Assembly: GCA_965230935.1 (NCBI GenBank)
Contig: OZ246400.1
Span: forward strand, 566,359-630,358
Reading direction: 5' to 3'
Length of the DNA stretch: 64,000 nt
Source: an uncultured Gammaproteobacteria bacterium
GTDB lineage: Bacteria; Patescibacteriota; Patescibacteriia; Magasanikbacterales; JBBTQS01
The notes below the pieces were generated by a model. It saw only the letters and a list, made by a program, of their open reading frames with translations, was not told the origin of the DNA and did not search any database. Of this stretch, positions 19,610-61,991 are shown piece by piece. Position numbers and translations under genes: made by a program. Each line of letters begins with the position of its first letter. Positions within the stretch are counted from its first letter, which is position 1.

Positions 19610-19732
19610 ACCCCCTTGTGATTAAAAAATCATGTAGCGTCAGTATACCATATCCTGATGTGCCCAACCTATATTGACAAGCTCGCCTGAGGGCGTAAGA
19701 TGACCTCAAACAACACGACGCAAAGGAGGATC

Positions 19733-20068
19733 ATGCACGTCGGAAAACTGATCGTGATCGCTGATGGCGATGTGATCATCTGGCGCTCAGAAGGGATCGT
19801 GTCGTTTGGTGATCACACCATCCACGAACTGCTCTACGGCTACCGAATCGGCGAGGGCGGACTGTGGGAGATGCTCACCAAGGAGGACGTAACACCGGAG
19901 CGCTTGCGTATGGCTCGCATGGTCGTTTACCTTCGCTTGGGAGGGACACTCATCCCCACCCGCGCCAAGAAAGACAAGACGATCACCTGGGTGAGGCTTG
20001 CAAGTATTGATCGCGACGGCGAGCTCACCTTTCTCACCAACGGCCCGCCGCTACAGCGCCCGCACTAA
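19733..20068 (+). CDS. Hypothetical 111-aa protein in GC-anomalous island A
   Basis: AAGGAGG lies 5 nt before the ATG (MHVGKLIV). TTGACA-N16-TAAGAT promoter at 19674-19701. GC is well above the flanks. Confidence 0.45.
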   Translation: MHVGKLIVIADGDVIIWRSEGIVSFGDHTIHELLYGYRIGEGGLWEMLTKEDVTPERLRMARMVVYLRLGGTLIPTRAKKDKTITWVRLASIDRDGELTFLTNGPPLQRPH

Positions 20069-20113
20069 TCTCAACCGACAACACAACAGCTTCGCGAGGA
20101 CCGCGAAGCTGTT
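20069..20113 (+). repeat. Island A 3' module: CA-rich ACAACACAACAG followed by a perfect 12-bp-stem hairpin
   Basis: tctcaaccgACAACACAACAGCTTCGCGaggacCGCGAAGCTGTT. Confidence 0.6.
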
Positions 20114-20137
20114 CGTATTCTGCGAATCAACGATTAC

Positions 20138-22060
20138 TTATTCCTGCGCTGATTCTTTATCTGATGATTTCTTTTCGCCTTCAGATGTTTGGGGAGGAAG
20201 CGTAAAAGTAAGTTCACCTTTCATGATTTGCTCAAATTCTTCTTGCTCAACATTCTCAACCTCAAGCAAGCGCGCAACCAATGCATCTACCTTCTCTCGC
20301 TGCTCACTCAAAATCTTAGCCGCTCGTCGCTTTCCTTCTTCAAGAATCTCTCGCACCTCAGCATCAATCTTTTGCGCGATATCCTCACTATAATCACGCT
20401 GCTCGTGAATTTCTTTACCCAAGAAAATCATGTCCTGACTTTGCCCATACGTGCGAGGACCAAGCGCATCGCTCATACCATAATCCATGACAATCGAACG
20501 TGCGAGGCGAGTTGCGCTGCGCAAATCGCTTGATGGCCCGGTGGAGATATGATCCTCACCAAAGATCATCTTCTCGATTACATACCCACCAAGCGCAATA
20601 GCGATATCATCATAAAACTCTGCTTTGGTATGAAAGTGCTTATCCTCTGTTGGCATCTTCAGCGTATATCCACCGGCATGACCACGCGCAATAATTGACA
20701 CTTTACGAACCGGATCGGCATGTTCACTAAAGAATCCAACAACCGCATGACCAGCCTCATGATACGCAGTGATTTTGCGCTCTTTATCTGAGATCACATA
20801 ACTTTTGCGTTCTGGCCCAAGGAGTACCTTTTCAATACTGCTTAAGATAGATTTGATGCTAATTGACTTTTTGTCCTGACGAACCGTTGAAATCGCTGCT
20901 TCGTTCATTAAATTTGCAAGATCAGCCCCAGTGAATCCAGGAGTACGCTCTGCCACCTTTCGCAGATCAACTTTTTCATCAAGTGGTTTTTTCTTGGCAT
21001 GAATCTTGAGAATCTCTTCACGGTCATTAATGTTTGGAGGAGCAACCGTTACGCGACGATCAAATCGCCCTGGACGTAACAGCGCTGGGTCAAGCACATC
21101 AGGACGGTTGGTTGCCGCAATCACAATCACGCCGATGTTGGGATCGAATCCATCCATCTCCACCAAGATTTGGTTTAAGGTTTGTTCACGCTCATCATGA
21201 GATCCACCAAGCCCTGCTCCACGACGACGACCAACCGCATCAATCTCATCAATAAACACGATTGCCGGCGCTGCTTTTTTGGCCTTAGAAAACAAATCAC
21301 GAACCCGTGATGCTCCCACACCAACAAACATCTCTACAAACTCAGAGCCAGACATGTGGAAAAATGGAACATTTGCCTCACCAGCTACGGCTTTTGACAA
21401 TAATGTTTTACCGGTTCCTGGTTTCCCCATGAGCAACACTCCTTTTGGAATCTTTGCCCCCATGTCAGTAAAACGCTTTGGGTTCTTCAAGAAATCAACA
21501 ATCTCATCCAGCTCTTCTTTTGCCTCTTTCATTCCAGCAACATCAGCAAACGTTACTTTGTTTTTTGCATCTTGTGCTTGCTCACGTGCAGTAGACTTTC
21601 CAAACATCATGGCACGAGAGTTTGCTCCTTGTACTTGTCGGGAAAGGAAGAAGATAAGAATGAAGATAAGCAGCAATGGCCCCAAGAAGGGTAAAATCAC
21701 GCTACGTAACCAAAACCGCAGTCCTGATTCACTTTGCACCGTGGTTTTAAACCGCAACAATTCCTCAGCAGTGACACCATAGTTGGCCAAAAGGTCAGAA
21801 AGCTTCTCCCCCGGCTCTTTACTCAGCACTTGTGGCACCGGAGTTTGATCATCATCAGGGTTGTCATCACGACGCGTAACCGTGAGACTTGAACCTTCAA
21901 CCAAAATCTCCTCCACCCGGTCTTCACGAATCTCGCTTACCAGTGTTTCGATCCCAATCTCCTCAGGCTCTGCTTTACCAAAATTCGCAAACTGAAACAC
22001 GCTCATGATAACAATCAACACGAGAAGGGTAATTCCAATGTTTTTGAATAAATTCTTCAT
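20138..22060 (-). CDS. ftsH: ATP-dependent zinc metalloprotease FtsH
   Basis: Walker [17 protein letters not shown] region, HEAGHAV zinc motif and two N-terminal TM segments. Confidence 0.85.
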
Positions 22061-22062
22061 AA

Positions 22063-26917: not shown

Positions 26918-26949
26918 AAACGTTTTCATAAAACAAGCCAAAATCACAA

Positions 26950-27005
26950 CACCGCCGGGACGTTCCCTGGCGGTGTGTGGTTGTATGATGAGTTGTGGGC
27001 GTTGA
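26950..27005 (-). repeat. Island B 3' module: CA-rich tract plus bulged hairpin, sense on the minus strand
   Basis: Sense strand reads TGAtcaacgcccACAACtcatcatACAACCACACAccgccAgggaacgtcccggcggtg. Confidence 0.6.
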
Positions 27006-27539
27006 TCAGTCCGCCGCGAGCGCCGTGGTGCAGTAGTAGTAGCTGCGGTTCGGATCGCCAGCGCCGCCGAAGATGCCCCAGCCACACCGTGGCTTGCTCG
27101 GGGTGCAGCCCTCCTCGACACCATCGTTGTTGGTGTCCTTCTGGATGCACTCCTGGCAGAACCCGTGATCGAGACCACTGTTCTGTGCAGTCTTGCAGAA
27201 GTGGCCCCAGACCGAGGAGAAGCAGTCCTTGTGCATCGTGCACAGATTCCCGTGGCCGATCATCTCCGACGTATCGGGATGCACGCACACGGCCGGCCTG
27301 TCGCCCTCGGTGTTGGTGTGGCACACCAGCCAACCGGGGCGGCAGTCCTCGTTGTACTGGCACGGATCCCCGACCCCGACGAGCGGATCCGTGATGATCA
27401 TCGGATCCGCCTGCATGGTCACGAGGTTACGCTCGGGCTCCACCACTTTCGGGGCGTCCTTCTTGCACCCCGAGGAGATGGTGAGGAAAAACAGCGGCAA
27501 GAGCGCCGCGGCCAACGCAATACGCGTACAGTTGATCAT
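27006..27539 (-). CDS. Cys-rich secreted lipoprotein in GC-anomalous island B
   Basis: Signal peptide with lipobox LTISSGC and at least 14 Cys. TTGACA-N17-TAGGGT promoter plus AAGGAGGG RBS upstream. About 60% GC. Confidence 0.5.
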   Translation of the reverse strand: MINCTRIALAAALLPLFFLTISSGCKKDAPKVVEPERNLVTMQADPMIITDPLVGVGDPCQYNEDCRPGWLVCHTNTEGDRPAVCVHPDTSEMIGHGNLCTMHKDCFSSVWGHFCKTAQNSGLDHGFCQECIQKDTNNDGVEEGCTPSKPRCGWGIFGGAGDPNRSYYYCTTALAAD

Positions 27540-27742
27540 GGCGTCCCTCCTTCGTTTTTGCGAGGCACCGTGCCAAGCAAGGAAGCCAAACTACACCCTA
27601 CCACTATCAACAATGGTTGTCAAGTGTAATATACTTAAAATTAGCTAAATTAAAGAAAAATATAACAATTCTAATGAAACACCTCCTTCTATTGCCAAAA
27701 TAGGCTATATCCGCTATAGTAAGGCACGTAAAACTAAAAACT

Positions 27743-31340: not shown

Positions 31341-31431
31341 GTGTGCAGAAGAAAAAATTTATTCCATGCTTGGAAATTTTTTCTTCAAAAGTTTTTAAAA
31401 ACTTTTTATCCAAACATAGAAGGGGGTGATA

Positions 31432-31802
31432 CTATGCCAGCACGCAAACGTGCAACTCGTCGTAAGCCTGCAAAACGCAAACCTGCTCGTAAGACAGCGG
31501 CTAAGCGTAAACCAGCGAAACGCAAGACGGCAAAACGCAAACCAGCGAAGCGTAAAGTAGCAAAGCGAAAGCCAGCTAAGCGCAAAACTGCAAAGCGTAA
31601 GCCTGCGAAACGTAAGGTAGCTAAGCGTAAACCAGCGAAACGCAAGACGGCAAAACGCAAACCAGCGAAGCGTAAAGTAGCAAAGCGAAAGCCAGCTAAG
31701 CGCAAAACTGCAAAGCGTAAGCCTGCGAAACGTAAGGTAGCTAAGCGTAAACCAGCTCGCCGCACGACTCGTCGAAAGACAACTCGTCGCAAGCGAAGCT
31801 AA
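31432..31802 (+). CDS. Histone H1-like, Lys/Ala/Arg-rich DNA-binding protein with KRKPAKRK repeats
   Basis: RBS gaagggggtg before ATGCCAGCACGC. The protein is almost entirely (AKRKPAKRKTAKRKPAKRKV)n. Contains a perfect 120-bp tandem duplication. Confidence 0.6.
31501..31740 (+). repeat. Perfect 2 x 120-bp tandem duplication inside the histone-like CDS
   Basis: 31501-31620 is identical to 31621-31740. Confidence 0.85.
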
Positions 31803-33141: not shown

Positions 33142-33210
33142 ATACCCCTAGTCTACACGTGAGTGCGCTCTATTGCAAAAGCCCTGGAAGTTGGTACACT
33201 ATGCACACAT

Positions 33211-34236
33211 ATGACTTCTATGAATTCTCAACTTAAATCAACTATCGACAACTTTGACCTAGGGGTAGTGCAGGAGATTAGTAAAATCCCATCTGGTCTT
33301 ATCAACCTTAGCTATCGTATTACCAGTTCCACTGGGTCGTATATTATGCAGCGCATGGGGGATATCTTCACCAAAGAGACAATTGAAGATATGGAAAAGG
33401 TTACCCAACATCTTAAAATCAAATCAATCAATACACCGACATTACTCCGCACGACATCTGAACAATTATTTCATACAGATGTCGATGGACATTTATGGCG
33501 CGTCATGACCGCCATGGATGGCGAGACATATGAAAGTCTTGATGATGATGGGTTGGCACAAGAAGCTGGGCGCGTGCTTGCAGAATTTCACAAAGGTATG
33601 CAGGACTTTGACGCAAGTCAATTACAAAACCATCTGAAACTTCATCAGACACGGGACATTTATGCAGAGTACTGTAATTATGTTGAAGAACTGCTTACCA
33701 CTGAATCTGATCCTCTTATTAAAGAGGCAATCACCTATATTCAAGAAACACTTCCGGATACCTACTTGCCTGTTGGTCTTCCCACAACCGTAATCCACGG
33801 CGACCCCAAAATTTCAAATATCATTTTCAAAGATGGTGTTGCTGTATGTATGATTGATTTGGATACCTGCATTGAACATTCTTCGTTGGTTGACTTGGGT
33901 GACGCCTTATGGTCATGGGTTGGCAGTGAAGGAGACGATCCAAATAATCGTTTTTCACTTGCTCGATTTGAAGCAGCAATGCGAGGGTACATGTCTGTGA
34001 TCCCACTGAGCACTGATGAGCAACACTACGTCTATCGTGGTGCGCGCATGATTGCCTTGGAGCTTGCCTCTCGATTTGCAAAAGACACGATCGATGATTC
34101 TTATTTTGGTTGGGATGCTGACCGATACAAAAGTCGCAAAGCGCATAACCGCGCACGCATGCTTTCTATGGTGCGACTTGAACAAGATATTGTACGGAAG
34201 AAAGATCGGATCATTGATATCCTGAACAATATTTAA
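33211..34236 (+). CDS. Phosphotransferase-family kinase (APH / choline-kinase / CotS-like fold)
   Basis: VIHGDPKISNIIF and IDLDT match the APH catalytic and DFG-like motifs. The start is uncertain (33163, 33211 or 33220). Confidence 0.5.
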   Translation: MTSMNSQLKSTIDNFDLGVVQEISKIPSGLINLSYRITSSTGSYIMQRMGDIFTKETIEDMEKVTQHLKIKSINTPTLLRTTSEQLFHTDVDGHLWRVMTAMDGETYESLDDDGLAQEAGRVLAEFHKGMQDFDASQLQNHLKLHQTRDIYAEYCNYVEELLTTESDPLIKEAITYIQETLPDTYLPVGLPTTVIHGDPKISNIIFKDGVAVCMIDLDTCIEHSSLVDLGDALWSWVGSEGDDPNNRFSLARFEAAMRGYMSVIPLSTDEQHYVYRGARMIALELASRFAKDTIDDSYFGWDADRYKSRKAHNRARMLSMVRLEQDIVRKKDRIIDILNNI

Positions 34237-34276
34237 TCGGTGCGAGGACAGACCACTTTTTTCTATAAAATTTCAA

Positions 34277-34333
34277 AAGCGACCGGATGTTCCTGGTCGC
34301 TTCTGCGTTGTGTTAGTTGTGTGCATGCCGGCC
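34277..34333 (-). repeat. Island C 3' module: CA-rich tract plus A-bulged hairpin, sense on the minus strand
   Basis: Sense strand reads TAGggccggcatgCACACAACtaACACAACgcagAAGCGACCaGGAacaTCCGGTCGCTTttgaaatttt. Confidence 0.6.
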
Positions 34334-35332
34334 CTACGCCGCGATCGACCTCTGGAGCCGACGGTGCATCTGCGTAGCCGGCGGCAACAGCGGATCCACG
34401 GTCACCTGCTTGAGGTCGGGCTCCTGTGGCACGTAGATAAGCCGCTGTCGCACGTTGACCATCTGATTGTGGACTCGGAGTTTTTCGGTGCTCTCTCCGT
34501 AACTCTGAACTCCACCGGAGGTGGCCATGTCCCTGGCGAAGAGCCCGATCACGGTGTGCATGACCACATACTTGACCTGCGGGTAGCCGTTGGCCTCGCG
34601 CAGCGTCTCCGTTAGTGGATGCTCGGCAAACGCGGTGATCCCGTAGCGCTCGAGAACCCCGGCCATCAGACCGTACTCGATGCACCACCCGATGGGCAGC
34701 GGCATGTTGGCGATGTCACCCAGACGAATCCCCTGCTGTCCGCACAACGGCCAGGTGACTTGTGCCAACTGACAGTACGGCTCGGGCAGGAAGTTGAGCC
34801 CGGCTGAGAACCCGGAGTTCTCTGGCCAACCCAACTTGACCAGCCGCGCTTTTGGGGCACCTTCCCACGCCAACAACAGCTTGCCGATCGGATCGGCGCT
34901 CTGCAGATGGGTGAGGTCGGTATCCAAGAAGAAGATTCGCGTGTCGAAGTCGACTCCACGCTGCACCAGATCAAGCACCGCCGCGTACATAGCAGCGCCC
35001 TTGCCGACGCAGAACTCGTTCTTCGGAAGGCCAAACTGCTCACGCAGCACGTTCAGCACTGTGGAACCGCGCCCCAGCATGTCACGCTGCGACACCACTC
35101 GCATGGCGTTGCGCGTTCCGGTCAAGGAGTGAACCACCTCGCGCGCCACGCGCACGGTCGGGTCGTCCTTGTCGGTCATGTTGCTCTCCACGAGCACGAT
35201 CTGACTGGGCTCGACGCCCCGAGAGATCACGTACTCGAGTGTCTGACCAATGTTGCCTTCCTCGAAGAGGGCCGGCAACACCACCACGTCTTCCGGGCGT
35301 AGCTCTTTCCACGCCTTCTCCCACTTGCTCAT
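34334..35332 (-). CDS. GT81-family glycosyltransferase, glucosyl-3-phosphoglycerate synthase-like, in GC-anomalous island C
   Basis: VVVLPALFEEGNIG, GKGAAMYAA, FLDTDL, WPLCGQQ and IGWCIEYGL parallel the mycobacterial GpgS motifs. aggagg RBS before MSKWEK. About 60% GC. Confidence 0.55.
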   Translation of the reverse strand: MSKWEKAWKELRPEDVVVLPALFEEGNIGQTLEYVISRGVEPSQIVLVESNMTDKDDPTVRVAREVVHSLTGTRNAMRVVSQRDMLGRGSTVLNVLREQFGLPKNEFCVGKGAAMYAAVLDLVQRGVDFDTRIFFLDTDLTHLQSADPIGKLLLAWEGAPKARLVKLGWPENSGFSAGLNFLPEPYCQLAQVTWPLCGQQGIRLGDIANMPLPIGWCIEYGLMAGVLERYGITAFAEHPLTETLREANGYPQVKYVVMHTVIGLFARDMATSGGVQSYGESTEKLRVHNQMVNVRQRLIYVPQEPDLKQVTVDPLLPPATQMHRRLQRSIAA

Positions 35333-35539
35333 GTTGCCCCTCCTTCGGTTCAACCCAATGCACGATGATCGTTACCTTGACAATTGCACATTATCGTGCT
35401 ATTGTCTTGGCGGAACTGATGACTCCCCAGTTATCGTTCTAGAAACTCCGCTTTGCGGAGTTTCTTCTTTCCGCCATTTTTCAATCTATGGTAATAAGAT
35501 GATTCCTACTGTATCGTAATTACTTTGGTAAAGCAAGAA

Positions 35540-36628: not shown

Positions 36629-36714
36629 AGGGATCCATCTTGAAGAAAAATTGTTTGATCTACAATGCGTAAAGAGAGCACGGTTGCGTCCTCTTCACTG
36701 CGTTGTGTTTATCG

Positions 36715-43792: not shown

Positions 43793-44638
43793 TTATTGTT
43801 GCCACGATTCTGTAGCACGTTTATATACTTCGGCTGAACCAACATCAAACCATTTTCCAGAAAATGGGTAGCCGCATAATTCTTGCTCACCAGTGAGTGT
43901 GCACAGCACATCTTCTTCAAAACTTGCCGTTTGGGAAGTAATGCTTTTCAAGATCGCGGGGTTCACCACATAAATACCACTATTGATCATGTGTGAATTT
44001 TTATTACTTCGCTCTTGCTTCGCATTAAACCGTACAACATAATTTCCTTCCATGCCTACGGTTCCCCAAGGTTCGGTATCAGTCACTGTGGTAACTGCCA
44101 TCGTAACCGCACTGCCATTTTTGTCATGAAATTCAATCAAGCTCAACCAATCCACCTGTGCCAATACATCACCATATACTAACAAGAATGGTTCGTCTCC
44201 AATTTGTTCTTTTGCAAGTGAGATAGCATGCGCAGTTCCTTTTTCCTCTAAATCAGTAATATACGAAATATGAGCCCCAAATCGGGACCCATCTTCAAAA
44301 TAGCGCTCAATTTTACTCCCAAGATGTCCGGTAACGAGAATAATATCCTTAAGTCCTGCAGCCACCAACGACATAATGGTATGCTCAATGAGGGGTTTTT
44401 CATTAACCGGCAACATGACTTTTGGATATTCATGCGCTAATTTACCCATTTTTGTGCCTTTACCACCGGCCAAAACCACCACTTTAGTAACTTTCGACAA
44501 GATGTGCTGGTTCAAAATATACTCAATCGCATGGGAACGATTGCGAATGGTCTTTTTGTCGATCATTCTGTCGACCTTCTTTAAGATTGAAGGCGAAAGT
44601 GTAATCGTAAGTCTCTCTTTTTTTGCCTGTGGCGCCAT
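43793..44638 (-). CDS. Ribbon-helix-helix domain fused to a sugar-phosphate nucleotidyltransferase
   Basis: N-terminal RLTITLSPSILKKVDRMID (CopG-like) then VVVLAGGKGTKM NTP-transferase. Confidence 0.55.
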   Translation of the reverse strand: MAPQAKKERLTITLSPSILKKVDRMIDKKTIRNRSHAIEYILNQHILSKVTKVVVLAGGKGTKMGKLAHEYPKVMLPVNEKPLIEHTIMSLVAAGLKDIILVTGHLGSKIERYFEDGSRFGAHISYITDLEEKGTAHAISLAKEQIGDEPFLLVYGDVLAQVDWLSLIEFHDKNGSAVTMAVTTVTDTEPWGTVGMEGNYVVRFNAKQERSNKNSHMINSGIYVVNPAILKSITSQTASFEEDVLCTLTGEQELCGYPFSGKWFDVGSAEVYKRATESWQQ

Positions 44639-44740: not shown

Positions 44741-44852
<112 letters not shown>

Positions 44853-44925
44853 ATAGCTGCTTTCGCGCTATTGCTATTTGATTGTTTTGAAAATGAAGAC
44901 GCACACATACCGCAAGTATAAAACA

Positions 44926-47985
<3,060 letters not shown>

Positions 47986-48340: not shown

Positions 48341-48369
48341 ACTATATAGGAAGTACGAAAACTTGTCAA
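48341..48369 (-). promoter_or_regulatory. Consensus TTGACA-N17-TATAGT promoter pointing into the rRNA leader
   Basis: Minus strand reads cTTGACAagttttcgtacttcctaTATAGT. A boxB-like hairpin with T-tract follows at about 48170-48200. Confidence 0.45.
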
Positions 48370-48475
48370 GGATTGATGTGGATGAGTTGTGTATGATTGA
48401 CGTTTCCTCTAAATCATGCGACGCTATGGCTATGCGTCGATCCTGACGCACAAAACCATCAGACGAGGAGGGCTG

Positions 48476-49039
48476 ATGATCGAGTTGCTCACGACAATGG
48501 CGTTCGTAGCGCCTGACGACAGACCAGAAATGAATCCGGAGCCTCCTGAACAGGAGACGCACGGGTTCAATGTCCCGTTGTGGGCCGGCTGGATGCTGAT
48601 GTGTCTGGCCCTGGGTGCGGCGTTCGCTTTGCTGATCTCACCACTCAGCGCTGCCTGGTGGGTGCACCTGATCAACGGTGCGGTTGCCATGGCGATCATC
48701 TTCCTACTGAGTGTGCTGATCGCCAGGATGAACAACCCGGAGCTCCTCACCAAGATCAAGCAGATGCTGTTGATCAGCTTCATGGCAGGAACGTTCTGCT
48801 ACCTCGGCTTTGCGCTGGCGAGCTGGGAGCTGATGGTCGAGGATGGGCAGTACTACGCCAAGGAGCTCTCCTTCATCAACTTGCGGCACATGTTCACCGG
48901 CCAGATCGTGACCTTCATCGGAATCACGTTCTGGTGGCGAACCGCTAATGGTGACTGGGCGACGCCAACGCGAAAAGATGGAACCCCACCATCACCGGAT
49001 TCGAGCCGACCAACGCAACGACCAGGACGATTCCTGTAG
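48476..49039 (+). CDS. Membrane protein (4-5 TM) in GC-anomalous island E
   Basis: gaggaggg RBS before MIELLTTMAFV. About 60% GC. Confidence 0.4.
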   Translation: MIELLTTMAFVAPDDRPEMNPEPPEQETHGFNVPLWAGWMLMCLALGAAFALLISPLSAAWWVHLINGAVAMAIIFLLSVLIARMNNPELLTKIKQMLLISFMAGTFCYLGFALASWELMVEDGQYYAKELSFINLRHMFTGQIVTFIGITFWWRTANGDWATPTRKDGTPPSPDSSRPTQRPGRFL

Positions 49040-49104
49040 CGCGTGGGCCGGCACACAAACAACTCACACAACGAAACCGCCTGGACAACTTGTTCGGGCG
49101 GTTT
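49040..49104 (+). repeat. Island E 3' module for the plus-strand gene
   Basis: TAGcgcgtgggccggCACACAAACAACtCACACAACGAAACCGCCtggacaacttgttcGGGCGGTTT. Confidence 0.6.
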
Positions 49105-49119
49105 ACATTTAGGTAAATC

Positions 49120-49161
49120 AAAACACAACCCGGTTGGGTCGCGCTTGGTTGTAGTGAGTTG
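49120..49161 (-). repeat. Island E 3' module for the minus-strand gene (CA-rich then aaccgggtt-type hairpin)
   Basis: Sense strand reads TGAcaactcactACAACCaagcgcgacccaaccgggttgtgtttt. Confidence 0.45.
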
Positions 49162-49605
49162 TCAGTCCCAGATGGTGCCGCAGCCCTCGCACTGGTAGCA
49201 CGTGTCCTTGAACTTCCAGGCGTGGGTGCCTCCTGCAGGGCAGGGGTCGTCCGGCGGGCCATCGTCGGTCTGCTGCGGGTCGTACAGCGCGATGTAGCAG
49301 TCGGCCTGGGCGCCACCCCAGTTGAGCTCGAGGCCGTAGGCTTCGAGGAGCTCTTTGAGTGACCGAAGCGTTCCGCGACCGAAGAACGTGAGCATGAGCA
49401 TCTCCGCTTCGCTCCGATCAAGCAACTCTCGAAGCGTAGATGGCATGCGCCGACGGGGATTCTCCCGCCCCCGCACTTTCTCTTGCACGCGCCGCAGTTG
49501 AGCGATAACACGGGTCGCCAACCCCATCCGTGACAACGAGAATAACAACTGCTCGCTTCCCCGAAGGGTCTGCGCCACTTCCTGGCGCGTGATGTTCGTT
49601 GACAT
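49162..49605 (-). CDS. Small putative regulatory protein: HTH (RpoA alpha-CTD-like) plus C-terminal C4 zinc ribbon; GC-anomalous island E
   Basis: LSRMGLATRVIAQL and LRSLKELLEAYGLEL, then ...CYQCEGCGTIWD. Promoter TTGACT-N17-TTAGTT, palindrome ttgactTCagtcaa and gaggagga RBS. Confidence 0.4.
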   Translation of the reverse strand: MSTNITRQEVAQTLRGSEQLLFSLSRMGLATRVIAQLRRVQEKVRGRENPRRRMPSTLRELLDRSEAEMLMLTFFGRGTLRSLKELLEAYGLELNWGGAQADCYIALYDPQQTDDGPPDDPCPAGGTHAWKFKDTCYQCEGCGTIWD

Positions 49606-49673
49606 TGCTCCTCCTCAACGCAATTAAAAAGTGGGTGTAGGTACCCACAACTAATCACATTATTTGACTGAAG

Positions 49674-49958
49674 TCAACCTTTTTGGACCAGCACAACTAC
49701 ACAACTTCCGCCATGCAACTCTACTTCCCACTGCGCTACAAGCGGATTTTCTTGGAGCGTTTCTTGAACTGCTTTACTAAGCACCCCATCACCCAACCCA
49801 TGAACTACGCGACAGTACGACTCCCCTTCCTTGTACAAAGAAAACAGTTCACGCTCAAGTAACTCTAAAGCGCCAGCAACTGAATCTGTCTGGTGCAGAT
49901 CAATTACCGGCGCCTTGGCATCGAGTTGCGCGGCAAGAAGTGCTGCGCGATCATTCAT
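49674..49958 (-). CDS. Smr-domain protein
   Basis: IDLHQTDSVAGALELLERELF...VVHGLGDGVL. Confidence 0.5.
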   Translation of the reverse strand: MNDRAALLAAQLDAKAPVIDLHQTDSVAGALELLERELFSLYKEGESYCRVVHGLGDGVLSKAVQETLQENPLVAQWEVELHGGSCVVVLVQKG

Positions 49959-54036: not shown

Positions 54037-55032
54037 ATGCCAAAGAATATTTTCGTCACTCGACGTATCCCATCTGCTGGGCTCGACCTGTTGCTCAAAA
54101 ACAAAAAATTCAATGTTCGAGTTTGGCCAAAAGACACTGCAATCCCGTACAAACGATTACTCAAAGAAGTCAAAGGCACTGACGCGATCTTGAGTTTGCT
54201 TACTGAGACAATTGATGAAAGGGTATTTGCCGCTGCCGGTGATCAACTCAAAGTCGTGGCAAATTATGCAGTTGGTTTTAACAACATTGATATTGCTGCA
54301 GCTGCAAAACACAACGTCGTGGTGACAAATACTCCTGGAGTGCTTACCCAAGCGGTAGCAGAACATACCATTGCCCTGATGATGGCGGCTGGCAAACGTA
54401 TTGTGGAGGCAGATCGATTTACCCGAAGTGGAAAATACAAGGTATGGCAACCGATGTTATTACTCGGAACTGAATTCTCCGGCAAAACTCTTGGTATTGT
54501 TGGTGCAGGTCGTATTGGGTCATTTGTTGCACGATTCGCTGCGGCAGGACTCAATATGAAAGTACTCTATGTAAACCGCCGACGTAATGAAGAGATCGAA
54601 AAACAGTATGGTGCTAAAAAAGTAACATTGCCAACACTGCTCAAAAAGAGTGATGTCGTGACATTACATGTGCCGCTTACTGAGCAGACACGATATATGA
54701 TTGCTGAAAAAGAACTTAAGATGATGAAAAAAACTGCGGTGCTGGTCAACACTGCTCGCGGACCGGTAATCAAAGAAAAAGCGCTGCTGCGATCGCTATA
54801 TAAAAAAGAAATTCTAGCAGCTGCGCTTGATGTATTTGAATGCGAACCATCCATTGATTGTAACACCAAAGACCACTATGCGCTGCGCGAACTTGACAAT
54901 GTAATTTTGACGCCGCATATCGCATCAGCAACACACGAGGCACGAGATGAGATGGCGCGTATTACCGCACGCAATATTATCGCGGTACTTGGTGGGAAAA
55001 AGCCAATTACACCAGTTGATCCAAATCGGTAA
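54037..55032 (+). CDS. D-isomer-specific 2-hydroxyacid dehydrogenase (glycerate/hydroxypyruvate/phosphoglycerate dehydrogenase family)
   Basis: GIVGAGRIGSFVA NAD-binding loop and HIASAT catalytic His region. Confidence 0.75.
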   Translation: MPKNIFVTRRIPSAGLDLLLKNKKFNVRVWPKDTAIPYKRLLKEVKGTDAILSLLTETIDERVFAAAGDQLKVVANYAVGFNNIDIAAAAKHNVVVTNTPGVLTQAVAEHTIALMMAAGKRIVEADRFTRSGKYKVWQPMLLLGTEFSGKTLGIVGAGRIGSFVARFAAAGLNMKVLYVNRRRNEEIEKQYGAKKVTLPTLLKKSDVVTLHVPLTEQTRYMIAEKELKMMKKTAVLVNTARGPVIKEKALLRSLYKKEILAAALDVFECEPSIDCNTKDHYALRELDNVILTPHIASATHEARDEMARITARNIIAVLGGKKPITPVDPNR

Positions 55033-56180: not shown

Positions 56181-56255
56181 AGAAAATAAAAAAGTAATAT
56201 TCAGATGTCTGCACCTATGCAGGCGTCTACATACTACCATGAAATACGTTGGTGC

Positions 56256-56341
56256 GCCCGGAAGGAGTGATTCCCTCCGGGCACTTGCTTGGCACGCGTT
56301 CGCGCGCAAAACCCACGTGTTGTGTTGTTGAGTGTAGTGCG
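56256..56341 (-). repeat. Island F 3' module, sense on the minus strand
   Basis: Sense strand reads TGAcgcactacactcAACAACACAACACGtggg...GCCCGGAgGGAatcacTCCtTCCGGGC. Confidence 0.6.
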
Positions 56342-57235
56342 TCAGGCCACGACGCCTTTGGCCCCGTAGAACCAGGTGCTGCGCTGCAGCATACCCATAT
56401 CCGCTCTGCACGAACCGTAGTGGTCGTGCAGGAGGTTTGCGGCGGTGCCCATCGGGGAGACGAACACGCCGGTTGCCGCGAAATGGGCACTGATCTGCGC
56501 GTGATCCATCACTCGCTTCTGGTACGTTCCGGTCCACAGCACGCGCTTGTGCCGCTTCCCGATCGCCACCACGAAGATGGTCATGATGCCGGTCTCGGGG
56601 TCGTACACCGGATGGCGCACATCCCAGACCGGCTCGCCGTCGAGGATCGCATCCCAGGTGAAGTAGCGCCGCTTCTCACAGCACTCCAGATATCCGGTAG
56701 CGATGAAGTCCATGACGAACTGACCACCCTGCTTGAGCGGCGCGACCATGCCGGTCGTGACCTGCTCGAGCAGCGCGAGATCCGTGATATCAGCGAACGA
56801 ATTGCCGAGCAACACCGCAGCGTCGCACGACACGTCCGTTCGCCATTCACACAGATCACCCACGTGCAGCTCGACCCGCGAATCGCCCCCGAAGAGACGA
56901 CGAGCTTTTGCCACACAGGCGTCTGAGAGATCCACACCGATGATGTGCTCGACTCCTGCATCCAAAAACGCCGGGATGTGTCGACCCGTGCCGAAACACG
57001 GGAGGAACAGCACCTGCGGAACCGGACGCAAGAGTTGAAGAGTACACGCGACCTCCGCCCTGGAGAGGGCATCGTCCTCGTGTACGCCTTCGTCGAGCTG
57101 GACCATGATGTCGTAGTGCCGTGCGATGTCGAACTGCTCCAGCGCCCGAGGACGCCTGAGGAATTGTTCGATCTGCGCCGCGGCAACACCAATGGCCCAT
57201 TCACCATCACGCTTCTCTTGCGCTGTCGCACTCAT
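56342..57235 (-). CDS. Class I SAM-dependent methyltransferase (small-molecule/protein type, not DNA MTase) in GC-anomalous island F
   Basis: LFLPCFGTGRHIPAFLDAGVEHIIGVDLS (motif I) and acidic motif II. No DPPY/NPPY motif. Overlaps the upstream gene by 29 nt. Confidence 0.55.
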   Translation of the reverse strand: MSATAQEKRDGEWAIGVAAAQIEQFLRRPRALEQFDIARHYDIMVQLDEGVHEDDALSRAEVACTLQLLRPVPQVLFLPCFGTGRHIPAFLDAGVEHIIGVDLSDACVAKARRLFGGDSRVELHVGDLCEWRTDVSCDAAVLLGNSFADITDLALLEQVTTGMVAPLKQGGQFVMDFIATGYLECCEKRRYFTWDAILDGEPVWDVRHPVYDPETGIMTIFVVAIGKRHKRVLWTGTYQKRVMDHAQISAHFAATGVFVSPMGTAANLLHDHYGSCRADMGMLQRSTWFYGAKGVVA

Positions 57236-59525
57236 GCGGCGGCCGCCCCCGCGTGACGTCGGACGAAACGGCCGTAGCCGAGTCGGCCTTGAGCTGCTCC
57301 TTGACGACGATCACCTCGACAGCGTCAGACGCGCCGTGGACCTTGAGCCCACGACGAAGGGTCATCATGCTGCCAACCGTCTTGACCACCCCCGGCGCCG
57401 TGCGCAGAAGGTACAGAGTCAGACGCGTGCGCGCATCGCGGATGACATCGACGTTGCCGTCCTCGTCCGCGTACGCACAAGTGACTCGGGCCGACTTGAT
57501 GAAGCGCTGCCCGATCATCGGGAAGGTGGTAGCCACCGCCTTGGAGACCTCGGCGAGCCAGTCCGTCAGACTGTGTTTTTCACCAGCCTCGAACAGACGC
57601 GCACCCCAACAGCCGTTGTCACCGTCGTACCCACCGCCCTTGATCACCATGTCCCCACGGTGATTCTTGTCGCTTCCCGGTCGCTTCCCGCGAACCTGGT
57701 CCATGGAGAACGCATTGTTCACCGTGGCCAGCTCGAACGCGTCGGTCAGCAAACCGGTGGTCGCCAGATGGGCCTGAAGTGTGTCCACGACCGGCTGGCC
57801 GTAGTGCTCCACGATCCACTTGCACACGCTCGGCAACCAGGCGGCCATGAGCATCACCTTGGACTCCGCGTAGAAGCACACCGGGTTCAGGAAGACGACG
57901 TCGTCCTTCTCCCACTCCAGCATGCGCCGGAGCAGCTCGTTGGCGAAGTTGTCGTGGTACCCGAACCGGAAGACGACCGAGCCGTGCGGCGGCGCCGGAA
58001 TCTTGTCGGACTCGTAGCCGAAGACGAACTCGTCGAACTCGGCGGACGCCAGGCGCCCCATGAAGTCCGTGTTCCAGTTGGCCTGGAAGGCCTTGGACGC
58101 GGCGGACGGCGGGTTCCACTCGAACGGTGTACCACTGCCCGGCTGGATCTGGTCGTGGATGGCCTGGAGCGGCTTGTCGAAGATGATCTGAGCATCGATG
58201 CCGCGGCGCCGAAGCTCCGCGCAGAACACCGCCTGGTCCCAGGTGTACTCCGACCACTCGTTGGTAGCGATGATGCGAAACGGTCGATCACCGATGAAGC
58301 CGGCGTAGGCATCGACCATCTCGGTATCTACCTCGTACCCCAACTCCATAGCGTGGACCATCCCCTGACCCGCACCGGCGGACTCGGCCTCCGTGGTAAC
58401 CGGAGCGAGTTTGTCGCCCCGCCGGATGACCGAGATGTCCGGACGCGTCAGGAGCATCGGCTGATCGCTCACCAGCGGCTCGATCCGATCGGGCAGCTTG
58501 AAGGTGAGCAGCTGATGCAGTGCCTCGTCCCCGGCCTTCCACTTCGCCTGAACGGCATCGCAGAGGATGAACAGGGACAACGCGAACATATCCAACTGCT
58601 GCCAGAAGACCGCTGGAAGCTCCATGGTGCGCAGCGCCACCAACCACGTCGGGCCTTCACCGCCCTTGTAGCCGATGCTGGTCTGCCGCATGCGCTCCTT
58701 GACCCGCACCCCCTCGGTAGCCGAGGTACCCATGCGTTCCGTGTCCGTGTCCTCGAGCATGACCACCCGGTCTCCCGAGTTGAGCTCGTCGAAGCACGAC
58801 GGATCCTGCATGAGCATGTCGAGCATGGTCACCCCGGTACCGCCGATCGTGGGCTGGTTGAAGTAGCACACGGCGACCGAGTACAGCTTGAACAGCGCGA
58901 ACAGCGGCGTCGGCGCCGTGACCTCCTCACGCTCCCCCTCCGGCTTGGCACGCTGCGCGGCGCGAGCCGCTTCGTAGGCAGCCATGTGGCCCGGCCGGTA
59001 AAACGTGAGCTGACGCTCGTGGGAGTTGATCCCGTCGATGACCGCTTCCACCACGAACTCGTCGATCGCCTCGAGATCTTGTGCGTCGCTGACGGCCAGG
59101 CACTGGTTTCCCACACCCCGGTACGTCTCACTCGAGCGAATCTCGAAGCTGCCGTCCGGCCTGGCGACCAGACGCACGATGAGCTCGCCGTCCTGATTGT
59201 GTCCGAGGTGAACGACCCGACTCTTGCACTTGTCGAAGACGATCCGCACCCCCCAGTCGAACCCGGTGTAGGGCAACCGCTGCGCAGCCGCCTGCATCCG
59301 GAGACGATTCTTGGGGAACGTGCCAAACGCCTGGGGCGGGATCTGCACGACAACACCGTCGTGGCAGTACTCCCCGCCAGCAGCGTGCGCATCGAGTATC
59401 TCCCGACTCCACTTGCCCGCCCCCTTCTTGTACGGGGACGGCTCCTTCCAGCCGTGCCTGCGACGATCCGCATGGAGGCGCAGAATCGCCTCACGCGCTG
59501 TCGCGTCCTGTGATTTTTGACTCAT
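57207..59525 (-). CDS. Hypothetical 772-aa protein (no confident domain) in GC-anomalous island F
   Basis: agaggag RBS 8 nt before ATGAGTCAAAAA. About 62% GC. Co-oriented and overlapping with the methyltransferase gene. Confidence 0.45.
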   Translation of the reverse strand: MSQKSQDATAREAILRLHADRRRHGWKEPSPYKKGAGKWSREILDAHAAGGEYCHDGVVVQIPPQAFGTFPKNRLRMQAAAQRLPYTGFDWGVRIVFDKCKSRVVHLGHNQDGELIVRLVARPDGSFEIRSSETYRGVGNQCLAVSDAQDLEAIDEFVVEAVIDGINSHERQLTFYRPGHMAAYEAARAAQRAKPEGEREEVTAPTPLFALFKLYSVAVCYFNQPTIGGTGVTMLDMLMQDPSCFDELNSGDRVVMLEDTDTERMGTSATEGVRVKERMRQTSIGYKGGEGPTWLVALRTMELPAVFWQQLDMFALSLFILCDAVQAKWKAGDEALHQLLTFKLPDRIEPLVSDQPMLLTRPDISVIRRGDKLAPVTTEAESAGAGQGMVHAMELGYEVDTEMVDAYAGFIGDRPFRIIATNEWSEYTWDQAVFCAELRRRGIDAQIIFDKPLQAIHDQIQPGSGTPFEWNPPSAASKAFQANWNTDFMGRLASAEFDEFVFGYESDKIPAPPHGSVVFRFGYHDNFANELLRRMLEWEKDDVVFLNPVCFYAESKVMLMAAWLPSVCKWIVEHYGQPVVDTLQAHLATTGLLTDAFELATVNNAFSMDQVRGKRPGSDKNHRGDMVIKGGGYDGDNGCWGARLFEAGEKHSLTDWLAEVSKAVATTFPMIGQRFIKSARVTCAYADEDGNVDVIRDARTRLTLYLLRTAPGVVKTVGSMMTLRRGLKVHGASDAVEVIVVKEQLKADSATAVSSDVTRGRPPHECDSAREA

Positions 59526-59548
59526 CTCCTCATCTCCTCTCTAACATT

Positions 59549-59572
59549 GTCATGACTTCCTGTCGTGACAGG
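59549..59572 (-). promoter_or_regulatory. Paired palindromes (gtcatgac; cctgtcGTgacagg) between the putative promoter and RBS of the island F operon: candidate operator
   Basis: Perfect 8-bp palindrome and 6+6 palindrome immediately upstream of the RBS. Confidence 0.4.
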
Positions 59573-59903
59573 GTTGATTGATACACTCAATTGTCGATGA
59601 ACGTTACCCAACGCGATGCTGGGCCTCCCATCCGCATTCACCGACAATCGGCTTTTACGAAAGGGAGGGCAACACCTGTTAAACGAAAAATGCTGCAGTT
59701 TCCTGCAGCAATGGAGTCTTTATGGAGACAACGACTTATACAACATGCTGCAAGGAAGGCTTTGGCACAATAAAACGCACAATCAAAACCCAGAGAGTGC
59801 GATGCACCATCTTAGTCTTGTGGAGATATTGTGTCAAGCTCAATACTTGCATACAATGTGTTGTTCAAAACTTACTCTAATATGTGTGAGAAGGCTTGTC
59901 AAA

Positions 59904-61007
59904 TCATCTTGTGGATGACTGCGTCGCCCTTCGAATAAATTCGACATAAATATCATAAAAATCTTTTATGCTATCCATATGAACCCATTCATGATTACTA
60001 TGCATATCACCGGAAATCGGCCGGCTACACAACACCGGAACATCGTGGGATGCAAAATACCGTCCGTCATCTGCACCACAGCTTGCAATGAGTGTTGTTT
60101 CTTTATCTAAAATGTCTTTTACCACCTGTTTATACAATGCAATATATTGGTTGTCTGGAGCAGTGTAACTCGTTCGCCCCTCTTCAAGAATTTGGATCTG
60201 ACACCCTACAGCTGCCTGTTTAATTTGTTCGATAAACTCATAAGGATCATCATTTTCAGTTAATCGGACATCCAATACACATTCTGCACTTTCCGGAACT
60301 TGGTTAATACTTAATCCGCCAGAAATTTTGCTGACTGTGCAAGAACGTTCCCATCGCTCTGGTGTTTGTTCTTGTGGAAACAATTCGCGGATTCGCTCGT
60401 ATGCGCGCATTAACTTCAAAATTGCATTATCGCCCAACCACGGGCGCGAACCATGAGCTGATGCGCCATGTGCGTGAACACGGATGATCCATGATGCTTT
60501 ATTTTTGTGAATTAACGTCTCTGGATTATCACTTCCATCGGGACACAACACCACTTTGGCTCGGTATCCGATTTCTTCGGCAAGATACTTTGCCCCGTTA
60601 AACCCACCAATCTCTTCATCACACGTAAGCATCAATGCAATATTTGGACGCGTATTCCATGTGACGATCTCTTGCATTACGACCATCATCACGGCATCTT
60701 CAGCTTTCATATCACACACACCACGACCACGCATGATTGGTCCTTCGATTCGCGGTTCAAAATACTCATCTGGTGAACCTACTACATCCAAGTGTCCCAA
60801 CATGAGCACATCAGGAGTGAGCGTCTCTTGCGTACTAATGACTACTGAGTGCGAACCTTCGCTCTGATATTGACGAACGAATAAGTTGGGGACTGGTGCA
60901 AAAAAATCGAGCACATAATCAATTGCGCGGCGCTGTTCATCAAACCGATCCTCAGTGGTGCGCATGCGCACCAAGTCTTGGGTGATTTTAATAAGTTTTT
61001 CTTTCAT
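59904..61007 (-). CDS. M20-family peptidase (ArgE/DapE-like deacylase)
   Basis: MLGHLDVV and GRGVCDMKA motifs. Start at MKEKLIK (cat at 61005-61007). Confidence 0.6.
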   Translation of the reverse strand: MKEKLIKITQDLVRMRTTEDRFDEQRRAIDYVLDFFAPVPNLFVRQYQSEGSHSVVISTQETLTPDVLMLGHLDVVGSPDEYFEPRIEGPIMRGRGVCDMKAEDAVMMVVMQEIVTWNTRPNIALMLTCDEEIGGFNGAKYLAEEIGYRAKVVLCPDGSDNPETLIHKNKASWIIRVHAHGASAHGSRPWLGDNAILKLMRAYERIRELFPQEQTPERWERSCTVSKISGGLSINQVPESAECVLDVRLTENDDPYEFIEQIKQAAVGCQIQILEEGRTSYTAPDNQYIALYKQVVKDILDKETTLIASCGADDGRYFASHDVPVLCSRPISGDMHSNHEWVHMDSIKDFYDIYVEFIRRATQSSTR

Positions 61008-61039
61008 AGAAGTGTTTGCATTGTAGCGGAGAATGGAAA

Positions 61040-61264
61040 GGAAGAGCAAATTGAGTAAAAAAACAACACCCACGATCGGTATCGGGGGAGCTGCGTTGTG
61101 TTGGTTGTGTGTTGTCACACCGAAGGTGTGGCCTCGGTCATCTGGGCTCTGTTGTTGTCGCCTCGCGTATGCCCGACAGGGTGCCGTGGCCACTTTCGAT
61201 GTGAGGGGCGATGATTGTTGGTTGCGGTATTAAAACCACCGATCTATGAAAAGGGAAGCGGAGC
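61040..61264 (-). repeat. Island G extended 3' region: hairpins, CA-rich ACAACACACAACCAACACAACGCAG, terminal hairpin plus T7 tract; sense on the minus strand
   Basis: Plus strand reads ctgcGTTGTGTTGGTTGTGTGTTGTcacaccgaaggtgtg. Terminal hairpin cccccgataccgatcgtggg is followed by tgttgttttttt on the sense strand. Confidence 0.55.
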
Positions 61265-61894
61265 TCAGCTTCCACCCCTCTTCGCCATGAATGCGGCGCC
61301 ATGGCCAATGTGCGTGTTCACCGGCTTCCCCTCCTCACACAACGGACACTCGTTCGCTGGGTAGGTCGACATGTCGACGTTCACCAGTGTCACGAGATGC
61401 TCCACGCCGAGAACTCCAGGTGTCACTCCGCCACGATTGACCAAAGCAGCAACTCCCACCACGTTAGCACCAAGAGAGCGTGCCAGTTCGATTGCCTTCT
61501 TGGCCGAACCACCGGTGGTAAGGATGTCCTCGACCACCATCACACGCGTGCCCGAAAGCAGGTGCGGCTCGGTTTTCACCACGAAGCCATCCCCGTCCTT
61601 CTCTGCGATAAAAAAGGACACGGGCCTGGATGTAAGCATGGCGAGTTTGTCCGCTGTGACAATGCCTAGTGCGATAGCTCCTACGGCCGGCGCGACCACA
61701 GCATCAATGTCGGGGTCGACCTCGTGAGCCAAACGAGCCATCTCCTCGCAGAAAGAGGACACCTCAGCTGTATGAACGACCACGGCACGTTTGTTGATGT
61801 GGGCCGGACCATGGTAACCCGACGCGTACACGAAATGGTCGTTGTCAAGTACCGCCCCAAGAGCGGCCAATCTTGCCATGAAGTCCTGTTTCAT
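61265..61894 (-). CDS. Type I phosphoribosyltransferase, orotate-PRTase-like, in GC-anomalous island G
   Basis: VMVVEDILTTGGSAKKAIE PRPP-binding motif. aagggagag RBS before MKQDF. About 60% GC. Confidence 0.55.
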   Translation of the reverse strand: MKQDFMARLAALGAVLDNDHFVYASGYHGPAHINKRAVVVHTAEVSSFCEEMARLAHEVDPDIDAVVAPAVGAIALGIVTADKLAMLTSRPVSFFIAEKDGDGFVVKTEPHLLSGTRVMVVEDILTTGGSAKKAIELARSLGANVVGVAALVNRGGVTPGVLGVEHLVTLVNVDMSTYPANECPLCEEGKPVNTHIGHGAAFMAKRGGS

Positions 61895-61991
61895 CTCTCT
61901 CCCTTCGCACGAAATCGCTGTGACCAAAAAAACTTCACTTAGTGAAATATTAGAGAAAAAAGTGTTGATTGTCTAGAATAAAATTTTGATG

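Follow-up and report, generated by a model that had tools for sequence, protein, structure and literature searches.

The window analysed here is a 64-kb stretch of a Patescibacteria chromosome, and the subject is a series of short GC-rich islands within it, each carrying one or two genes and ending in a CA-rich tract followed by a hairpin (the 3' module); the analysis covered about 74 kb of the 931-kb genome. The backbone of the window has a GC content of 0.40-0.47 in a 400-nt profile, on a chromosome of about 45% GC, and its genes include those for FtsH, ribosomal protein S1, GyrA, L32, NusB and RNase III, along with tRNAs. The window is part of the chromosome of a member of the Patescibacteria (candidate phyla radiation, CPR; ABY1-like), and the best relatives of its GyrA are found in metagenome-assembled genomes (MAGs) of this phylum (Falkowbacteria, Kuenenbacteria, Parcubacteria); the closest, L007, is 80% identical, and the next at most 66%.

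The same profile shows blocks of raised GC at about 19.6-20.1, 26.9-27.6, 34.3-35.4, 41.0-42.5, 48.4-49.65, 56.25-59.6 and 61.0-61.9 kb, which correspond to islands A to G, with segments at 55-65% GC. All seven had been placed at these positions by a first-pass annotation made from the letters of the DNA; its count was nonetheless incomplete, as it missed an eighth unit with a coding sequence (CDS) at 36715-37623. As read from their sequence, these units constitute a second gene class in the chromosome, with at least eight putatively autonomous expression units (10 genes), each having its own Shine-Dalgarno (SD) leader and a predicted intrinsic terminator; about half of them show a recognisable promoter of the sigma-70 type. 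Another block, of 0.50-0.54 GC at 44.7-47.9 kb, is not an island and corresponds to the 23S and 5S rRNA genes (44743-47948, minus strand); about 400 nt separate island E from the 23S gene downstream of it, and the window has no 16S gene.

The islands are real and not an artefact of assembly. The opposite view, that GC-rich fragments of another organism had been spliced into a CPR contig by assembly or by design, could appeal to the sharpness of the composition jumps and to the quasi-regular spacing of the seven listed island starts. However, MEGAHIT contigs from three runs (ERR2281800, ERR2281801 and ERR2281804) and Logan contigs match the window at 99-100% identity, and seven of them cross island junctions, which provides, at contig level, the junction support called for by the first-pass annotation; in addition, the same island proteins are on record from a 931,061-bp NCBI contig, and homologous GC-rich genes share their neighbourhood in unrelated assemblies. 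With contigs of three runs matching the window and orthologous GC-rich genes present in other genomes, the chimera is rejected at the level of assemblies, its probability being next to nil. As for the spacing of about 7 kb, it holds for the seven starts alone (coefficient of variation 0.16, P of about 2-5e-4 against random placement, a post hoc figure) and largely dissolves once the eighth unit is counted; no islands occur at 1-19 kb of the window or in the 10 kb beyond it, and regular spacing was dropped as a structural signal.

The sole difference between the window and the matching contigs regards a 120-nt tandem repeat at 31.5 kb, present in two copies or one. In the window it is a perfect duplication (31500-31756, plus strand) built of 15/30-nt units, inside an open reading frame (ORF) at 31341-31802 whose product looks rich in Lys, Ala and Arg; the ERR2281800 assembly has a single copy, by copy-number polymorphism or assembly collapse.

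Anatomy and cargo of the units

Unit A (19674-20068, plus strand) starts with the promoter TTGACA-N16-TAAGAT and a leader with AAGGAGG, whose SD duplex is of -11.5 kcal/mol; its CDS (19733-20068) encodes 111 aa with no family match and has a GC content at third codon positions (GC3) of 0.74. The 3' module of A (20072-20121, plus strand) consists of the CA tract CAACCGACAACACAACA, a hairpin at 20085-20113 and a tail (-21.7 kcal/mol, z -4.1), and it is convergent with the end of the FtsH gene at 20138. Unit B (27006-27623, minus strand) has TTGACA-N17-TAGGGT and GAAGGAGGG ahead of a CDS (27006-27539, GC3 0.86) for a Cys-rich protein of 177 aa, and the N-terminal hydrophobic stretch of this protein, ending in SSGC, suggests a lipoprotein. 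Its module (26942-26996, minus strand) contains ACAAC..ACAACCACACA, a bulged hairpin at 26945-26979 and the tail UGUUGUGAUUUU, with a folding energy of -24.9 kcal/mol, and converges on the end of gyrA at 26917.

Unit C (34334-35390, minus strand) carries GAAGGAGGGG and a CDS (34334-35332) for a glycosyltransferase of 332 aa, weakly similar to glucosyl-3-phosphoglycerate synthase; its module (34264-34323, minus strand) is made of CACACAACTAACACAACGCAG, a bulged hairpin at 34274-34305 and UUUUGAAAUUUU. The eighth unit (36715-37700, minus strand), absent from the earlier list, has TTGACA-N17-TACAGT, AAGGAGAG and a CDS (36715-37623) for a family 2 glycosyltransferase (GT2) of 302 aa; this gene is a paralogue of C at 36-38% identity, with GC3 0.56 and a milder GC rise (36.6-37.7 kb). 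Six nucleotides after its stop codon, the module (36665-36708, minus strand) begins with ACACAACGCAG and continues with a hairpin (-19.3 kcal/mol, z -4.1) and UUU. Unit D (41067-42500, minus strand) has GAGGAG and a CDS (41067-42443) for 458 aa, and the AlphaFold model of the protein (pLDDT 76) matches mannosyl- and glucosyl-3-phosphoglycerate synthases with a Foldseek E of about 1e-9; in its module (40992-41065, minus strand), CACAGCACACAAACAACACACAACA is followed by a long hairpin (40992-41041) and UUUUCU (-19.0 kcal/mol, z -4.4).

Island E holds two units. E1 (48360-49039, plus strand) has GAGGAGGG, an SD duplex of -12.1 and a CDS (48476-49039) for a hydrophobic product of 187 aa, probably a membrane protein; its module (49052-49110, plus strand) combines CACACAAACAACTCACACAAC with a hairpin at 49074-49104 (-26.1 kcal/mol, z -4.1). 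E2 (49162-49672, minus strand) has a TTGACT promoter-like site, GAGGAGG (SD -11.5) and a CDS (49162-49605) for 147 aa, with a weak match to the C-terminal domain of the RNA polymerase alpha subunit, a Cys-rich C-terminus and no assignable function; its module (49115-49161, minus strand) is a degenerate one, with CAACTCACTACAACC, a hairpin at 49121-49146 and UUUUGAUUU (-15.4 kcal/mol).

Unit F (56342-59600, minus strand) is a two-gene operon in which the CDS of F2 (57207-59525, 772 aa) overlaps that of F1 (56342-57235, 297 aa); F1 is an S-adenosylmethionine (SAM) methyltransferase, while neither F2 nor A has an assignable function. The module of F (56246-56335, minus strand) has ACACTCAACAACACAACAC, a double hairpin at 56246-56318 and a weak T tail (-43.6 kcal/mol, z -4.4). 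Finally, unit G (61265-61960, minus strand) has TAGACA-N17-TAATAT, GGGAGAG and a CDS (61265-61894) for 209 aa resembling orotate phosphoribosyltransferase, and it adjoins tRNA genes; its module (61050-61116, minus strand), with GACAACACACAACCAACACAAC(GCAG), a hairpin at 61063-61094 and UGUUGUUUUUUU, lies about 150 nt after the stop codon. The 3' untranslated region (UTR) between them (61117-61264, minus strand), of about 150 nt, contains no convincing ORF and could be what remains of a lost gene, or else an additional RNA element.

Gene calling at the islands is inconsistent. Public callers put island B on the strand opposite to the SD-led, high-GC3 frame adopted here, and the F region is called on different strands in two public assemblies whose sequence is identical; training on the backbone probably leads callers to mis-annotate such GC-rich units, and, given this inconsistency, CPR proteomes may systematically miss this gene class.

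Regarding the cargo, C, the eighth unit and D lie in a sugar-metabolism cluster (33163-43920) conserved across CPR, whose members comprise an APH-like kinase, a GFO/IDH oxidoreductase, an NTP-transferase, a HAD phosphatase, a TrmB regulator, a ROK kinase and an MGH1-like hydrolase; this composition suggests synthesis and turnover of a solute of the glycosyl-glycerate type. D has seven homologues among 5.8e9 proteins, one from a Kerfeldbacteria MAG and the rest from metagenome contigs; the C family has 28 representatives among 1.84e9 proteins, and no homologue of F2 was found in the protein collection search. Nothing informative came from PHROGs, where G matched a phosphoribosyltransferase family and E2 had a single marginal match, and a metagenome scan for closer relatives with the backbone protein at 54037-55032 gave only homologues of at most 58% identity. 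Three other origins or roles were discarded. For resistance or engineering cassettes, neither NCBIfam nor Pfam gave a match of this kind, and no plasmid matched. As to a viral origin, IMG/VR returned no relatives of F2 or C, and F2 matched no phage. For a defence system, PADLOC gave only a generic methyltransferase match for F1 and a marginal one for G.

The 3' module

When both strands of the whole window are considered, all seven CA-rich tracts that directly precede a GC hairpin sit at the 3' ends of islands, and the remaining CA-rich tracts have no such hairpin after them. A composite scan was also run, requiring two ACAAC units, few G/T and a hairpin of -12 kcal/mol or lower within 14 nt; this combination of a regular expression with folding took the place of a covariance model, since the hairpins vary too much for MAFFT to align them. 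It gave six matches in the 64-kb window, all at island ends. In other CPR and viral loci, 1.42 Mb in all, the scan matched five times, and in no case did the match lie at the point where a GC-rich gene ends. The coupling of CA tract and GC hairpin at island ends, first noticed from the letters, is confirmed by these counts, and the absence of integrase-type features noted with it is treated below.

Other parts of the initial description need adjustment. It listed two or three ACACAAC-type copies per island: exact copies range from none (B, E2) to two (C, G), and the rest are variants. It also placed the module immediately after the stop codon of every island gene, which fits most units but not G, with its module about 150 nt downstream, and E2, the second gene of island E, has only a degenerate copy. 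As for the bulged hairpin ascribed to B, C and F, the design with outer stem, bulge and inner stem is shared by B and C; the leader said to be common to C and E is indeed found in C and E1, as GGCCGGCA.

In RNA folding of the eight modules, the CA tract is unpaired in most, and the hairpins reach -15 to -44 kcal/mol, with z values from -1.9 to -4.4. The tail after the hairpin is T-rich in B, C, D, E1, E2 and G, and is UUU in the eighth unit; a stable GC hairpin with a U-rich tract, as in intrinsic terminators, is therefore recognised in these seven units. On this basis the 3' module looks like an intrinsic terminator, with termination as its predicted outcome. The CA tract might alternatively be a compact Rho-loading (rut-like) site, exposed as the ribosome leaves at the stop codon, with the hairpin acting as a pause site, which would make termination dependent on Rho instead of intrinsic: the tract is C-rich, nearly G-free, unpaired and usually 0-12 nt after the stop, and A and F are without convincing T tails. 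However, it measures only about 15-25 nt, whereas known rut sites are roughly 60-80 nt long, C-rich, G-poor and unstructured, and most modules have a canonical hairpin with a T-rich tail, so that this alternative is improbable.

Similarity among the tracts is not limited to their base composition. The window contains exactly three copies of the 11-mer ACACAACGCAG, one each in C, G and the eighth unit and all directly before the hairpin, with a chance expectation for such an 11-mer of about 0.03 in 128 kb; the 21-mer tracts of C and G are identical at 20 of 21 positions; D and E1 share the 12-nt block CACACAAACAAC and the 7-nt ACACAAC, with a 2-nt indel between them. The hairpins of B and C, in turn, both have an outer stem, a 1-nt bulge, a GG(G)A/UCC(C) inner stem and a 3-nt loop. 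Judging from the sequences, the tracts are related by descent and are not merely alike.

No module matched an Rfam 15 model up to E = 1, and only rRNA and tRNA reached thresholds; CACACAACNAACACAACGCAG had no match in viral contigs, and a looser D/E1 pattern gave ten matches in public DNA, none with the GC hairpin of the module and several directly before an ATG. ACACAAC is modestly over-represented in the window (21 observed, 12 expected); a role as DNA-uptake sequence or Chi-like site was dropped, as the motif is not enriched in the backbone. In the convergent pairs A/ftsH, B/gyrA, C/APH and E1/E2, the complement of the tract (UUGUGUUG...) could supply a U/G-rich tail to the opposing transcript.

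Composition, expression signals and origin

Third codon positions account for most of the difference between units and backbone, with GC3 of 0.65-0.86 in island genes against 0.30-0.45 in backbone genes, although the GC content at first and second positions (GC1 and GC2) is slightly raised too. The dinucleotide signature distance between islands and backbone is 0.134, compared with 0.037 ± 0.009 within the backbone; the islands resemble one another, since the distance between A-D and E-G is 0.035, and the preferences among G/C-ending codons agree between the two halves (r = 0.85).

Initiation signals differ as well. Over 31 backbone genes, taken as called on public contigs of this genome (L001, L087, L090 and L092), the best duplex between SD and anti-SD averages -2.5 kcal/mol, and three genes reach -8; all six island genes called by public callers score -8.6 to -12.4 kcal/mol, and by inspection GAAGGAGGG or GAGGAG stands in front of B, D and F2. 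Every unit-starting island gene has a strong SD of the GGAGG type, and the contrast of 8/8 units with 3/31 backbone genes has a hypergeometric P of about 3e-6. The AAGGAGG-type ribosome-binding sites reported at first for the islands are thus found in every unit, but strong ones are rare in the backbone. Many backbone genes have instead a TAnnnT box 4-30 nt before the ATG; within 4-13 nt it is present in 10 of the 31, against 12% at random positions, and this placement suggests short leaders devoid of SD, or leaderless backbone mRNAs. The near-consensus TTGACA promoters attributed to the islands were recovered in part: a TTGACA-type -35 with a plausible -10 is clear for A, B, G and the eighth unit and approximate for E2, while such pairs are not obvious for C, D, E1 and F. 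Given the contrasts in GC3, dinucleotides, codons and SD, the units form one coherent class, distinct from the backbone in composition, initiation signal and terminator style.

Similar genes exist in other CPR contigs, at 1548-3471 of L003 and 1093-7327 of L006, most with terminators of their own and, in L006, with TTGACA promoters. The dinucleotide distance of these GC-rich genes to the window islands is 0.05-0.07, and they are far from their own backbones; a CPR contig with uniformly high GC, L110, is at 0.134, so that it does not share the signature of the islands.

The closest relative, L007, is collinear with the window from the gene of the type II secretion system (T2SS) ATPase to that of RNase III, and it differs at three places. 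The slot of island A has only about 80 nt with an ordinary terminator; slot B, after gyrA, is occupied by a different, unrelated GC-rich gene of 450 aa; and between S1 and the next gene L007 has two GC-rich single-gene cassettes where the window has none. Therefore, at least some units are gained, lost or replaced at intergenic sites. The two L007 cassettes are adjacent (7150-8950, minus strand), encode 183 aa (TetR-like by reading of the sequence) and about 250 aa, and share a 3' module of their own of about 70 nt, CCTGGCCGGGrCG ... ACCGGTCT ... CCCCC/GGGGGTCTTTTTAATT, unrelated in sequence to the ACACAAC tag.

Such turnover raises the question of mobile gene cassettes with a structured 3' recombination site, of the integron/attC type or served by a recombinase encoded elsewhere in the genome. 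Single-gene units that end in a hairpin, imperfect and in some cases bulged, and that share a motif beside it would suit this idea, as would the differences between relatives, the separate 3' module shared by the L007 cassettes, and an inverted 9-mer, AGTTGTGTA / TACACAACT (48386-48394 and 49697-49705), that flanks island E. However, no RYYYAAC/GTTRRRY pair 40-140 nt apart is present in the eight 3' regions, which have isolated single matches only; apart from the 9-mer (P of about 0.03), junction direct or inverted repeats, as target-site duplications (TSD) or terminal inverted repeats (TIR), do not exceed those of random window pairs; and the genes called in the window and its flanks include no integrase or transposase family. 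Moreover, the units are dispersed, 2-8 kb apart, with their own SD-containing leaders and, in several cases, recognisable promoters, and do not form an array of adjacent promoterless cassettes, and what is conserved is the single-stranded tract and not the hairpin. The lack of integrase, transposase, attC core or TIR stated in the first-pass annotation was confirmed over this range, and the recombination-site role that it proposed for the 3' element found no support; its view of horizontally delivered cassettes marked by a shared 3' element stands as far as the discrete, compositionally foreign units of one or two genes, the related element and the turnover are concerned. An integron is very unlikely, and the chance that any structured recombination site is at work is slim. 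The 9-mer pair places the tag motif outward at both edges of island E, and its left copy overlaps a possible extended -10 of E1.

The reading that we favour, which accounts for most of the data and has about an even chance of being correct, is that of moron-like acquired expression cassettes with a genome-specific terminator element. Most units would have come by horizontal transfer from a GC-rich, SD-using gene pool circulating among Patescibacteria, and would have been inserted whole between backbone genes by illegitimate recombination. In aquifer genomes, about 83% of the detected transfers to Patescibacteria came from other Patescibacteria (PMC12455944). As for the 3' module, the ACACAAC-type tract of 15-25 nt, which lies 0-12 nt beyond the stop codon in most units and about 150 nt beyond it in G, would stay single-stranded, since C and A cannot pair with each other; it may thus allow clean folding of the GC hairpin within a GC-rich transcript that is otherwise highly structured, so that RNA polymerase would release at the U-containing tail and the terminal hairpin would protect the 3' end of the mRNA. 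The tract is probably a recognition element as well, for a factor that this organism would use in termination or RNA stability, because ACACAACGCAG is kept in three unrelated units and the tag is genome-specific; it would have spread or been homogenised among the units, or been kept by selection.

Several observations weigh against this reading, and the first of them regards D. In five lineages (the window, L003-L005, L006, L110 and L111), homologues of D directly adjoin the gene of an MGH1-like glycoside hydrolase (GH); the GC3 of D is 0.80-0.90, against 0.3-0.6 for its neighbours, in the four of low or medium GC, while L110 is GC-rich throughout. Identities among the four lineages are 65-70% for GH and 46-56% for D, and drop to 53-57% and 37-41%, respectively, towards L110, which is therefore the outgroup for both. 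This looks like vertical co-inheritance of D with GH, D evolving faster and keeping its GC excess, as far as can be told from five taxa in a nearly star-like arrangement; the ingroup topology is not congruent, as L003 and L111 are the closest pair for D and the most distant for GH. More weakly, the closest homologue of C (51-52% identity) lies in the same APH/MJ0043_C neighbourhood, with GC3 0.58 against 0.35, and both C and D fit their sugar-metabolism surroundings, unlike random cargo. Homologues of D and C in other CPR loci also keep a strong SD where their neighbours lack one, D even in L110.

The tag itself raises further objections. It is absent from the 3' UTRs of the D and C orthologues, those of D having other 3' UTRs; it occurs on a unit of intermediate GC (GC3 0.56), and is thus not confined to high-GC genes; and two backbone genes have one ACACAAC copy at their stop codon or just beyond it, with a hairpin downstream, namely that of the MGH1-like GH (42570-42642, minus strand) and that of a bPH_2-domain protein (about 4100-4160 of L092, some 5.8 kb beyond the 3' end of the window), with a post hoc P of roughly 0.004. 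Since the orthologues lack the tag and two backbone genes carry single copies, the tag is specific to this genome and not to gene families; the single copies hint at use of the motif by the resident genome, and the perfect 11-mer ACACAACGCAG on the least GC-rich unit would argue for selection or homogenisation. To these points are added the weak tails of A and F and the failure to find a donor, as no close homologue of any island protein was found, a search in which the combined query of A, B, E1 and E2 was uninformative, having missed even these proteins themselves. The single donor lineage considered in the first-pass annotation is weakened accordingly by the tag-less, syntenic, GC-rich C and D orthologues, the tag on the intermediate-GC unit and the single copies after two backbone genes.

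The observations on D, C and the eighth unit would suit a resident, selectively maintained class of GC-rich, SD-led, individually terminated genes, with stress-type enzymes similar to glycosyl-glycerate synthases among them. Selection would act on the transcript (stability, or differential translation of SD-led and SD-less messages), and ACACAAC would be the 3'-UTR tag of a regulon, bound by an RNA-binding factor. The syntenic, GC-rich, SD-led orthologues of D and C in several divergent lineages are in its favour, and so are the SD of D in L110 next to SD-less neighbours, the compositional boundaries that roughly coincide with the predicted transcript ends, the genome-specific nature of the tag, with its perfect 11-mer on the intermediate-GC unit and its single copies at two backbone terminators, and the dinucleotide signature that the genes of L003 and L006, but not L110, share with the islands. 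Against it, A is absent from the closest relative, slot B has an unrelated gene there and the relative has other cassettes; GC1 and GC2 are raised as well, which is what a long evolution in a GC-rich genome would produce; the congruence of D and GH comes from few, nearly star-like taxa, with L003 and L111 discordant; and we know of no mechanism able to hold GC3 at 0.8-0.9 in single genes of a genome at 45% GC. A resident class is a somewhat unlikely explanation, although one to be reckoned with. A bolder version, in which some Patescibacteria would use two expression grammars within one small genome, is doubtful; the two would be an AT-richer backbone with short SD-less leaders or none, and a conserved class of GC-rich, SD-led, individually terminated genes, its composition actively maintained over deep divergence and its members marked in each genome by a 3'-UTR tag of its own, here the ACACAAC repeats, for some factor to read; if true, the islands would be a post-transcriptional regulon and not the debris of horizontal transfer.

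Significance and relation to known systems

On the favoured, conservative reading, the window would be a tidy case of moron-like horizontal transfer into a core chromosome. The separation of gene classes and origins from sequence alone is clean for an uncultured, reduced genome, and few such cases exist. The C and D families, syntenic and persistently GC-rich, pose a testable puzzle between recurrent replacement and selection on composition, and the ACACAAC(GCAG) tract, which is conserved, is a candidate for a cis-acting element in termination or in the stability of mRNA; to our knowledge, almost nothing has been described on the control of RNA 3' ends in this phylum.

Compared with known systems, the units are closest to phage morons, reportedly described around 2000 by Hendrix, Juhala and colleagues as autonomous promoter-gene-terminator units between conserved genes. 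In both cases there are units of one or two genes with their own expression signals, a factor-independent terminator and a composition unlike that of the flanks. A unit carried by one genome is missing from the same junction of a relative, and there are no recombinase or repeat scars; unit A, when compared with L007, is precisely a deviant autonomous unit between genes that are adjacent in the relative. The backbone here is, however, a core chromosome (ftsH, gyrA, rRNA, tRNAs) and not a prophage, and no matches to phage records or viral contigs were found; the units also share a CA-rich 3' tract, differ from the backbone in SD use and include two cargo families syntenic across lineages.

Integron cassettes are likewise small and end, at attC, in an imperfect hairpin with extrahelical bases; unlike them, the units have no attC cores, IntI or array, possess their own SD leaders, have a T-rich tail after most hairpins, and are conserved in the single-stranded flank. 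REP and BIME (repetitive extragenic palindromes and bacterial interspersed mosaic elements) and the uptake-sequence pairs of Neisseria and Haemophilus are genome-specific 3' repeats with hairpins, able to terminate or stabilise the upstream mRNA; they have in common with the module the short, genome-specific repeats at gene 3' ends that contain or flank hairpins, but here the hairpins vary while the CA tract is conserved, and the copies are few and almost confined to GC-rich units.

Classical genomic islands resemble the units for their atypical GC, codon usage and dinucleotides, their accessory distribution and their many genes without known relatives; the islands of this window, though, span 0.45-3.4 kb, have no integrase, are GC-rich instead of AT-rich, consist of complete expression cassettes and, with the exception of G, do not adjoin tRNA genes. 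Finally, O-antigen and capsule loci are multi-gene and AT-rich, and recombination in their conserved flanks exchanges them; the C and D families recall these loci as syntenic, glycan-related genes with a persistently atypical GC across lineages, but they are single GC-rich genes, and no mosaic flanks were seen around them.

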